Part shown: positions 3,001 to 6,000 of the stretch, in pieces
How the letters are laid out: each line of letters opens with the position of its first letter
Numbering within the stretch: the first letter of the stretch is position 1
Virus record (IMG/VR): IMGVR_UViG_2778261136_000011
Reading direction: 5' to 3' (one strand)
DNA: 23,250 bases
Origin: a virus
Taxonomy: Duplodnaviria; Heunggongvirae; Uroviricota; Caudoviricetes
Program-made: the position numbers

Positions 3001-6000
3001 TGGCTCAAAGACGTACACGAATAAACCCGACGGGAAATCATTGCAGGCTGTATGTTGTTTATTTCCCTGGAATAATGTATTTGCAGATCGGAAAGTACCG
3101 AAGATAACCATTAATGGCAATACGGTGACGTGGTCGAATCTTGAGCAGGGTATGGGATCTTATATTTATACATTCTGGGGATAAGTGTCATGTATGGTTT
3201 GAGCATTATGAAGCCGGATGGCAGCGTATGGATAAGTCCAGGTTTTACGCCGCAGTGTCTGATCAACAAAGGCACCATACCAGCGACTGAAAAGTCTTTT
3301 TTTAAAACATCAATCCCGTCAGGCAAAAGTTGTTTTTTCTTTATCAGAACAGAGAAGAAGGCCGATGTCATGTACACGCATGAACAGATTGATGGATATC
3401 ATGCACTAAGGCTTCATGTAATTGTCAGGGGAACGAACCCTGGTGTTACGACGGTTTATGCTTTCGCGAATATGGTTACTCCACCTTCTGAGTATGGTAT
3501 CGCCATGTATAACCCGGACGGTGAGATGATTTATCATGGCGAAATGATGCTGCTTGACGCGAAGTTAATACCTGTTGATATCAAATTTGAAAAGGACCTT
3601 GGATATCCATGCGCAATCATGCCTGCACTGGTCGGGTATTATAACTGGAAAAGAACTCCTTATGACCGACCGATTTATACCACATCCACTGGCGCTACAG
3701 GAAATAAAATATATTCCTGTGAACATTATTCCGGTGGTGCAACATGGGATATTCGAAAGCCGTATATAGATAAGGTCCTGGTTATTAATACATCAATGTA
3801 TGATTGATAAGAAAATCTATATTAACAAAAACTTTTTATTAGATCGATAAAATATATTTGATTTATATTTATATTAAATAAAGGAAAATCGCGCATTACT
3901 GTACCTTTTAATAACAGGAATAATCTAAAGATGAAAAATATTTATAAGATTATTGCGTGTGCAGTTATTGGGACGAGCATGGTAGCCATGCCAGCACATG
4001 CAGCAGAAGGAGACCATACAATTTCTCTGGGGTATGCGCACTTTCAGTTTCCGGGACTGAAGGATTTTGTAAAGGATGCGACTGCTCATAACAGGGAGAC
4101 TTTCAGTCATTTCGTCAACAGAAACTACTTTTCTTCATTGGGCGAATATACAGATGGTCGGGTCAGTGGATATGAAGGCAAGGATAAAAATCCACAGGGC
4201 ATTAATATCAGGTATCGCTACGAGATAACGGATGATTTTGGCGTTATCACCTCTTTTACATGGACGCGTTCTCTCACTAACTCACAGACATTTATTGATG
4301 TGCAGTCAGCCGATCATAGCAGGAAGATTAAGAATCCGGCAGCTTCTGCCAGAACGGATATCAGGGCGAATTACTGGAGTCTGTTAGCGGGGCCTTCATG
4401 GCGGGTTAATCAGTACATGAGTTTATATGCGATGGCAGGGATGGGCGTTGCTAAAGTTACCGCTGACCTGAAAATTAAGGACAATATTAACAGTAGTGGT
4501 AGATTTTCTGAAAGCAACAGCACGAAAAAAACCTCCCTTGCGTGGGCTGCAGGTGCACAGTTTAACCTGAATGAGAGTGTTACACTGGATGTGGCTTACG
4601 AAGGTTCCGGCTCTGGCGACTGGCGCACGAGTGGCGTTACTGCTGGCATTGGCCTGAAATTCTGACCTGTATCCGGTAACCGTTTACTACCCGCTGTGAT
4701 GGCGGGTTTTTTATTGTCCGTACAGGGCAAAAATCGTAAATTATGCGTGGGTGCCTTTCGGCTGATGGCTGGAGGGTGAACCTGAAGGCCTGATGTGGAA
4801 AGGCCCCGAGTCAACTTAACGTTAACCCGAGGCCCTAACCATCATACCTTAAGCAAGTAGAAGGTTAGCGCCTCTCCACTCAGGAGGCAAGCGCTATGTC
4901 GCAAAAATCGCTTATCACCGTCACAATTTGTATGACGGTTATCTTCACCATCTGGATGTTACACGGCTCGTTGTGTGAGTTCCGGCTGAATTTGTGGGGA
5001 GCGGAGTTTGCGGCGTTCTTACAGTGTAAGCAGTAGGAAAACCGCGACGGGGACGAAAGTCCCCGTCAACTGGTTGCTGAGGTTCAGCCGATATGGCACC
5101 CGTTTCTGGTGAGAGAATGAACGATAAAATTCTCCGGTATATGCAGCGTGTTGTGAGAAATTCCCGCAACCCTGAATTTATGAATGAAGTTAAAGACGCC
5201 TGCCTTAAAAAGCAGGCGTTTTGTTTTGAGGCACCTGATGGCTTTCTGGTGCTGCGTTCTGTGCTCAGTGCTGATGGTATCCCTTATGTTCTGGTGTTGC
5301 TGGGCGTGTGTACGGGGAGTAACAGCGTTGAGCGTTATCTGCCGGAGGTGAAGACATTAACCCGTCTGGCTGGCGGACGTTGGGCTGAATTTCATACGGC
5401 AAGGCGGGGATTTATCCGGCTGGGAAAACGTCTGGGCTTTGAGCGAATGCCGGATGATGAGGATGGCTTCATGGTGTTCAGGATAGCGGTCTGACTGCTA
5501 CAGTTTTCATCATTGTGTTTAAACCAACATTGTAATTCACATTCTGACCCTGCTCCGGCAGGGTTTTTTGTTATCCAGGGGGCCATTATGGGTGGAAGTA
5601 AAGGCGGTGGTGATACCAAAGTAAAACCAACAGCAGCGCAAATAGCACAGGAAGAAGTGGCCTGGAAAGGGTGGCAGGATTACAAAAATATCCTCCGCCC
5701 GGCTGAAGATAACTTCATGGAAAAGGTCGATGACCTTAACAGTGAGCAGCAGTACGACAATATCGCTGGCACAACAAATCTTGGTTATCAGAAACAGTTT
5801 GGTGAAGCGCGAAGGGAGCTGGCGGGTAATCTTGCTCAGTCCGGTGTTGACCCGTCCAGTGGTCGCTTTAACGCGGTAATGAATGCGAACCAGAGTGATC
5901 AGGTAACCGGGCAGATTGACACAACCACACGGGGGCAGGTATCGCAGGCAGATAAGTATGTTGCCGGGCTACAGGATGTTGCAGCTCTCGGTTCAGGTCA

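Follow-up and report, generated by a model that had tools for sequence, protein, structure and literature searches.

We analyzed a stretch of 23,250 nucleotides (nt) from a virus of the Caudoviricetes (IMG/VR record IMGVR_UViG_2778261136_000011; referred to here as the window) and found that positions 4714 to 5101 very probably constitute a complete hok/sok-type type I toxin-antitoxin (TA) module, which a short-tailed Shiga toxin (Stx)-type (Traversvirus) prophage harbors as a moron behind its lom gene. The hok gene itself is already known, as it is annotated in RefSeq and has been catalogued. What goes beyond the known gene is a new reading of 24B_1, a 20-nt "microRNA-size" RNA of the Stx phage Φ24B (positions 45711 to 45692 of that phage; Nejman-Faleńczyk 2015, PMC4426718; Bloch 2023, PMC10732415), as a Sok-type antitoxin, together with a view of the published Δ24B_1 deletion as the knock-out of a TA system and a hok subfamily design that dispenses with mok. 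We lean toward the view that 24B_1 and its 80-nt precursor represent a hairpin fragment and the Sok-type antitoxin RNA, respectively, of an unrecognized hok module, that Δ24B_1 is the knock-out of a TA cassette, and that hok genes of this kind, which make up cluster 72 of a recent catalogue, gate translation without mok, unlike the hok gene of R1.

The toxin gene and the borders of the module

The toxin gene is an open reading frame (ORF) of 46 codons on the plus strand (4896-5036), and its product, MSQKSLITVTICMTVIFTIWMLHGSLCEFRLNLWGAEFAAFLQCKQ, is a peptide of 46 amino acids (aa) that is Hok/Gef-like, as had been proposed in the original prediction from the sequence alone. The peptide matches Pfam PF01848 (HOK_GEF) over profile positions 6 to 42 of 42 (33.2 bits against a gathering score of 22; E value of 4e-8) as well as PHROG 251 (85.8 bits), is hydrophobic from residue 5 to residue 22 (Kyte-Doolittle score of 2.25), and contains the residues S25-L26-C27-E28, which are invariant or nearly so among 17 subfamily members. 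In RefSeq, the product is entered as WP_000078907.1, "Hok/Gef family protein." Judged by its sequence, it belongs to a distinct Hok subfamily, separate from the named Hok groups, since it stays far below the curated NCBIfam cutoffs for HokA (equivalog NF007290, 38.4 versus 89 bits) and Hok (subfamily NF007279, 22.7 versus 73 bits) and shares 31% identity with HokW. Its relatives in the databases are peptides of 45 to 47 aa from Escherichia, Shigella, Salmonella, and Citrobacter.

For the alignment, for the ratio of non-synonymous to synonymous substitution rates (dN/dS), and for the covariation analysis, we used a set of 17 diverse homologous loci, the window among them. The hok frame is open in all 17, and the other two frames hold 1 to 4 stops; the median dN/dS of the ORF is 0.24 (79 pairs), and the window copy differs from that of VT2-Sakai by five synonymous and no non-synonymous changes. 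These sequence comparisons indicate that the ORF is under purifying selection, with a constraint at the protein level. The original prediction had been staked on conservation of the ORF as opposed to the nucleotide sequence, and on these three counts the ORF is conserved. With regard to toxicity, the coding sequence (CDS) is identical, base for base over 141 nt, to that of construct 72_1589 of Escalera-Maurer et al. (bioRxiv 10.1101/2025.08.07.668861). In the text of this preprint, 3 of 45 cloned constructs are named as non-toxic and 72_1589 is not one of them, which supports the view that the screen reports toxicity for the identical CDS.

The borders of the module are recognizable from its occurrence in unrelated contexts. 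Copies of about 80% identity follow lom in other lambdoid prophages, lie beside ykgM or on an IncI1 plasmid, or, in P2-like prophages, separate ogr from com. In each case, the homology block extends from the -35 box of the hok promoter to the sequence GGCACCC, that is, from 4714 to 5101 of the window, and coincides with the borders of the module, while the upstream flanks (lom, ogr, ykgM, plasmid) are unrelated. The functional unit reaches 5101 rather than ending at 5069, as had been assumed. This 388-bp module is present in 1673 of 5426 complete E. coli genomes (31%), at up to eight places per genome, and is uniformly annotated there as "Hok/Gef family protein." In the window, it is preceded by an Ail/Lom gene (3931-4665; Pfam Ail_Lom, 117.7 bits), with the hok ORF starting 230 nt downstream and the lom terminator (4689-4707, followed by a T run) lying between lom and the hok module. 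This region of the window shares 97 to 98% identity with the late regions of Stx-converting phages with short tails (Traversvirus; phi345, PA28, P27, Φ24B, VT2-Sakai, and 933W-type phages) and matches 198 phage records. Labels for the ORF in phage records are "small toxic polypeptide," "Hok/Gef family protein," and "MokW-like host killing," and in older records, such as those of VT2-Sakai and Φ24B, it carries no annotation. The gene is indeed absent from the ORF track of the window, as had been pointed out, but this is due to a size cutoff of the track and RefSeq does annotate it; nor is it a small toxin gene that annotation routinely misses, given that it is among the genes called by PGAP in over 1600 complete genomes.

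An identical copy (100% over 388 bp) is found in E. coli O43 RM10042 (NZ_CP028122.1, positions 1152939 to 1176188), where this proximal hok module is intact and its neighbors are decaying, with lom being frameshifted and a second Hok/Gef gene, beside the rut operon, being both truncated and frameshifted. A scan of genome contigs returned seven hok loci, three of them from implausible hosts; the same hok gene is present in assemblies labeled Xanthomonas pisi (857-bp contig, peptide 100% identical), a Planococcaceae metagenome-assembled genome, and Vagococcus sp. These three copies most likely reflect enterobacterial or Stx-phage contamination of the assemblies.

The antisense gene and the 24B_1 RNA

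A search of the minus strand at about 4800 to 4900 for a Sok-like antisense RNA, as suggested in the original prediction, does reveal such a gene, at about 4792 to 4856. The RNA of about 65 nt, which is predicted to start at about 4854 to 4856 and to end at about 4790 to 4795, consists of a single-stranded 5' tail of about 20 nt, a 16-bp hairpin, and a UUUCC tail, and folds with -33.3 kcal/mol (z score of -6.3). Its hairpin has a folding energy of -26.1 kcal/mol on the minus strand versus -11.9 kcal/mol on the plus strand, an asymmetry of 14 kcal/mol that arises because three G.U pairs become C.A mismatches on the plus strand and that, being specific to one strand, points to selection acting on the antisense RNA. 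The promoter on the minus strand (4862-4890) is composed of a -35 box, TTGCCT (reverse complement of 4885-4890), a 17-nt spacer, and a -10 box, TAACCT (reverse complement of 4862-4867), with the -10 box being invariant, as is AGGTTAGCGCCTC, in all 17 homologs. This promoter sits where the sokW promoter sits, and in what we take to be the position of the R1 sok promoter. The module has what is expected of a hok/sok system, namely, an antisense RNA that is encoded in cis, is transcribed from a separate promoter, and matches the hok leader with full complementarity, and an antitoxin activity may be presumed. By analogy with R1 hok/sok and hokW-sokW, the antisense RNA would pair with the leader at 4792 to 4856, which would lead to cleavage by RNase III and prevent opening of the ribosome site; once this presumably short-lived RNA is lost, for instance upon prophage induction, Hok might be made and the inner membrane depolarized.

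This antisense transcript is already known as the precursor of 24B_1. The 24B_1 20-mer, UAACGUUAAGUUGACUCGGG, is found as an exact string match at 4805 to 4824 on the minus strand, in the apical part of the Sok-type hairpin, and positions 45711 to 45692 of Φ24B (HM208303; coordinates from PMC4426718) correspond to positions 4824 to 4805 of the window. The published promoter p24B_1, which has the -10 box CGCTAACCT and, in Φ24B, the -35 box TTGACT (PMC4426718), is identical to the Sok-type promoter at 4862 to 4890, at which we had arrived independently. An 80-nt hairpin precursor of 24B_1 has been detected by reverse transcription-PCR and was reported to bind Hfq in Φ24B lysogens (PMC4426718, PMC10732415), with a dissociation constant of 25 nM (PMC10732415), and 24B_1 itself was described as a single abundant 20-nt species (PMC4426718). 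The Sok-type RNA at 4792 to 4856 corresponds to this published precursor.

The published Δ24B_1 deletion encompasses 188 nt, which in the window extends from 4698 to about 4884, and it takes out the antisense gene together with the hok promoter, the entire leader, and some of the Shine-Dalgarno (SD) sequence. Since the hok promoter, leader, and SD sequence are removed along with 24B_1, the phenotypes of the deletion are confounded. This bears on a different explanation of the locus, namely, that the minus-strand gene is a stand-alone, trans-acting, microRNA-like 24B_1 that tunes lysogeny via d_ant and sdhB, with the Hok ORF and the mRNA structure being incidental. Phenotypes of deletion and overproduction have been published, the 20-mer pairs weakly with sdhB mRNA in vitro (<10% bound), and a 2025 review still classes 24B_1 as trans-acting. 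However, the deletion phenotypes carry the confounding just described, and the RNA, whose promoter sits where sok promoters sit, shows perfect cis complementarity to a toxin leader that is conserved. Moreover, the same module occurs in P2-like prophages, on plasmids, and at chromosomal sites (the presence of d_ant there being outside the comparison), and the ORF is under purifying selection and, according to the preprint, toxic. We consider a purely trans-acting RNA very unlikely on these grounds.

The words hok, sok, and toxin-antitoxin are absent from PMC4426718 and PMC10732415, and a link between 24B_1 and hok was not found in the searchable literature, in which the sole paper naming both treats them separately, although such a link may have been made elsewhere. 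If 24B_1 is a cis-acting antitoxin, a decade of Δ24B_1 phenotypes would have to be read anew: this concerns the effects of the deletion on induction timing, burst, and lysogenization as well as the reported changes in ATP levels and in cI, cII, and cIII expression upon overproduction, and the microRNA analogy itself would be up for revision.

Folding of the hok mRNA and proposed translation without mok

On the plus strand, the predicted hok promoter (4714-4742) consists of a -35 box, TTGTCC (4714-4719), a 17-nt spacer, and a -10 box, TAAATT (4737-4742), with G4749 as the predicted transcription start. Both hexamers of the promoter proposed originally are present, and their position is kept in homologs despite unrelated flanks, with family homology starting exactly at the -35 box; in a consensus scan, the promoter nevertheless scores 8/12, under the threshold of 9/12. 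The leader was expected to be about 150 nt long and measures 147 nt when counted from G4749, in agreement with the start of the Rfam match and with family homology. This leader region (4749-4907) is homologous to the Rfam family RF01794 (sok), whose model represents the hok leader in sense orientation up to the hok AUG, and it matches the model over its full length (positions 1 to 157).

The full-length RNA (4749-5101) folds with -154.7 kcal/mol (z score of -6.7). In its minimum free energy (MFE) structure, the tac-type 5' end of the mRNA (GGGUGCCUUUCGGCUGA, 4749-4765) pairs with an fbi-type 3' element (UCAGCCGAUAUGGCACCC, 5084-5101), at which family homology ends, and the molecule is closed by a helix of 7 bp (4749-4755/5095-5101) and a helix of 8 bp (4758-4765/5084-5091). 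These closing helices are paired in 98% and 80% of the alignment cells, respectively, and three pairs covary in the extension helix, so that the long-range tac-fbi pairing of hok/sok systems is also found at 4714 to 5101. In the MFE structure of a 3'-truncated RNA, the 5' end refolds into a 12-bp helix (4749-4762/4795-4807), which is possible in 98% of the cells and in which the columns are invariant and hence give no covariation signal. The predicted refolding of the 5' end upon removal of the 3' end would thus follow the classical hok "fold-back inhibition/tac stem" logic.

Further helices involve the translation start. In the MFE structure, a hairpin at 4867 to 4895 sequesters the ribosome binding site by pairing AGCGC (4867-4871) with GCGCU (4891-4895) and UCUCC (4873-4877) with the SD sequence GGAGG (4883-4887), its two stems being paired in 99% and 89% of the cells, and a segment of the coding sequence that comprises the AEFAAF codons (5000-5016) forms a 15-bp helix with the start codon region (4896-4912) in both predicted folds (98% of the cells paired). 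Beyond the stop codon, a stem-loop of 9 bp with a GAAA loop is located at 5046 to 5067 (5046-5054/5059-5067), paired in 98.7% of the cells and with compensatory changes at four pairs; the hairpin noted originally is therefore real but had been placed 2 nt too far downstream, as an 8-bp stem at 5048 to 5069. It is followed by a downstream box (5070-5083) that pairs with the Sok-target region (4846-4860) in a long-range, ucb/dcb-like helix of 13 bp, with 84% of the cells paired and five compensatory pairs. Over the whole mRNA structure, 89.3% of the cells in the 17-sequence alignment pair, compared with 38 to 43% when the partners are slid, and compensatory changes are seen at 26 pairs compared with 6 to 16 in the slid controls. 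The RF01794 match of the leader, the z score of the fold, and the fraction of paired cells all agree with the hok mRNA-like architecture that had been proposed. Based on structure prediction and covariation, we therefore suggest a scheme in which the full-length mRNA would be locked by pairing of its 5' end with the 3' element, in which the ribosome binding site and the AUG would each be buried in conserved helices, and in which loss of the 3' element would allow the 5' end to refold onto 4795 to 4807.

The hairpin at 5046 to 5067 was also considered as an intrinsic terminator of hok but was rejected, as it lacks a U tract on the plus strand and is terminator-like only on the minus strand. On the minus strand (5045-5068), the conserved hairpin precedes CGGTTTTCCT and is scored as an intrinsic terminator that could stop antisense transcription entering from the right. 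The first terminator-like hairpin downstream of the hok module lies within the ORF 5117-5494, at 5193 to 5228, and has a T-rich tail on either strand; this hairpin, or a site just past 5101, is a candidate for the 3' end of the hok mRNA. The RefSeq start of this downstream hypothetical gene is the ATG at 5093, within the fbi-type element; the sequence suggests that the true start is the ATG at 5117, because PHROG 610 aligns only from residue 9.

The window hok gene has no counterpart of mok. An in-frame TAG (4866-4868), located 30 nt upstream of the hok AUG within an invariant AGGTTAG box, bars a same-frame Mok extension, as stated in the original prediction, and neither the box nor its spacing to the AUG varies among the aligned homologs that were inspected. 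That remark is relevant because hokW, encoded in the same window, does have an in-frame Mok-type extension, and it can be extended to out-of-frame mok genes: across all frames of the window, no ATG, GTG, or TTG opens a frame that runs across the hok AUG at 4896. Among the 17 homologs, overlapping out-of-frame ORFs are sporadic and have differing starts, and 7 of the 17, including the window, have none at all. The overlapping frames present in some homologs (starts at -103, -46, and -28; ends at +83 and +134) were therefore rejected as mok on account of their inconsistency, and a 21-codon leader ORF (GTG 4795 to TAG 4860) was likewise dismissed, as it stops 22 nt before the SD sequence and is not conserved. 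A literature search for reports of hok genes without mok returned nothing relevant. The subfamily, which is present in about one-third of the complete E. coli genomes, would represent a naturally occurring form of mok-independent hok regulation.

In R1, translation of mok up to the hok SD sequence is mandatory (PMC9841398). Without a mok frame, the antisense RNA described here must act without translational coupling, likely via the mRNA structure, via mRNA decay, or via both. In the MFE structures of the truncated RNA, the anti-SD segment is bound by GAGGC (4829-4833), which pairs with GCCUC (4870-4874), and it is freed when the antisense RNA occupies 4826 to 4856, and such capture and release might serve as a translation gate. 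At the level of the ensemble, the probability that the SD sequence is unpaired is 0.18 in the full-length RNA, 0.14 to 0.20 in truncated RNAs, and 0.18 with the antisense site blocked.

In light of this, one might argue that the module is a decaying hok relic that has lost mok and its terminator, so that the toxin is never translated natively and the block merely hitch-hikes with the phage late region. The missing mok, the missing terminator after the fbi element in Stx-phage copies, and the strong sequestration of the SD sequence and the AUG in every computed state would all fit this proposal, and inactivity has a precedent, as many chromosomal hok loci in K-12 are inactive. However, it is the subfamily as a whole, and not just this copy, in which mok is absent or inconsistent, the ORF is open in all homologs with the low dN/dS given above, the RNA helices show compensatory changes, both promoters are conserved, and the module is present in nearly a third of the complete E. 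coli genomes, in up to eight copies each. We therefore regard a relic as very unlikely and retain the interpretation of 4714 to 5101 as a complete hok/sok-type module.

Several points do weigh against this interpretation and against the proposed identity of 24B_1. The 24B_1 papers report effects in trans on d_ant and sdhB (PMC4426718, PMC10732415). Neutralization of the 46-aa toxin by the antisense RNA is a property that we infer by analogy. The leader scores 40.0 bits with RF01794 (E value of 1.5e-7 in a local search of 601 nt), which is under the gathering score of 59, and it is not reported at the gathering threshold. There is no mok frame at the window hok gene, either in frame or overlapping, which sets the gene apart from the R1 paradigm. 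About 20 nt past the 3' element, other family members have an intrinsic terminator that is missing from Stx-phage copies, and we infer how and where the hok mRNA ends, including any processing at its 3' end. Finally, the probability of the SD sequence being unpaired barely changes between states, so that support for a structural gate is confined to the level of MFE structures.

The second hok locus and comparison with known systems

The phage carries two Hok-family modules, and in Stx phages of the window type only one of them, hokW-sokW, has been studied as a TA system. Takada et al. (2021; PMC8621323) proved that hokW-sokW of the Stx2 phage Sp5 is a type I TA system that speeds phage release. 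Its homolog in the window is located on the minus strand at 17580 to 17904; it matches RF01794 with 112.6 bits at 17730 to 17904, above threshold, and encodes a HokW of 51 aa (17735 down to 17580), with an in-frame upstream ATG at 17792 giving a Mok-type extension of 70 aa. The possibility that the ORF at 4896 to 5036 is the published hokW was rejected, as both the HokW sequence and the primers reported by Takada et al. correspond to the minus strand at 17580 to 17904.

Elsewhere in the window, four matches to the Rfam family sRNA-Xcc1 (RF02221; 68.6 to 73.4 bits), a family described in Xanthomonas, lie about 528 to 880 bp apart on the minus strand between 20819 and 22850, and a repeat search revealed an exact 528-bp tandem duplication (21397-21696 and 21925-22224) within this region. 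The region that matches 16700 to 23250 in related genomes contains, among others, RefSeq antA/AntB and BRO antirepressor genes.

With R1 hok/sok (RF01794), the module at 4714 to 5101 shares a leader of about 150 nt, a hairpin just past the stop codon, and a toxin that is a small membrane protein of the Hok family. Common to both are also an antisense promoter that faces outward from the SD region and an antisense RNA composed of a 5' tail and a terminal hairpin; for the window module, the 5' end is in addition predicted to be able to switch, as in R1, from its 3' partner to an internal one. It differs in that the window hok has no mok frame, whereas mok translation is mandatory in R1, in that the leader reaches only 40 bits with the family model, and in that the Stx-phage copy is without a terminator of its own; furthermore, R1 Hok has 52 aa and ends in YESGK, whereas the window peptide has 46 aa and the C terminus FLQCKQ. 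With hokW-sokW, the module has in common the phage type, the toxin family, and the fact that a type I TA system is carried as phage cargo. In contrast, hokW-sokW is a different locus about 12.7 kb away, with a HokW of 51 aa that is 31% identical to the peptide described here, an in-frame Mok-type extension, and a leader of 112.6 bits, and the published experiments concern the locus at 17580 to 17904 and not that at 4714 to 5101.

The catalogue of Escalera-Maurer et al. (bioRxiv 10.1101/2025.08.07.668861) comprises 32,532 hok loci and describes cluster 72 as a "high-abundance cluster"; 72_1589, sequence 1589 of this cluster, is identical to the window in peptide and 141-nt CDS. That work is concerned with coding sequences only and explicitly sets aside Mok, Sok, and mRNA structure, and lom, Stx phages, and 24B_1 are not mentioned in it. 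Finally, 24B_1 of Φ24B is encoded by the same DNA, in that the Sok-type gene coincides with the 20-mer as well as with the predicted promoter and the hairpin precursor of 80 nt published for it; the difference lies in the reading, as the RNA was interpreted there as a trans-acting microRNA analogue.

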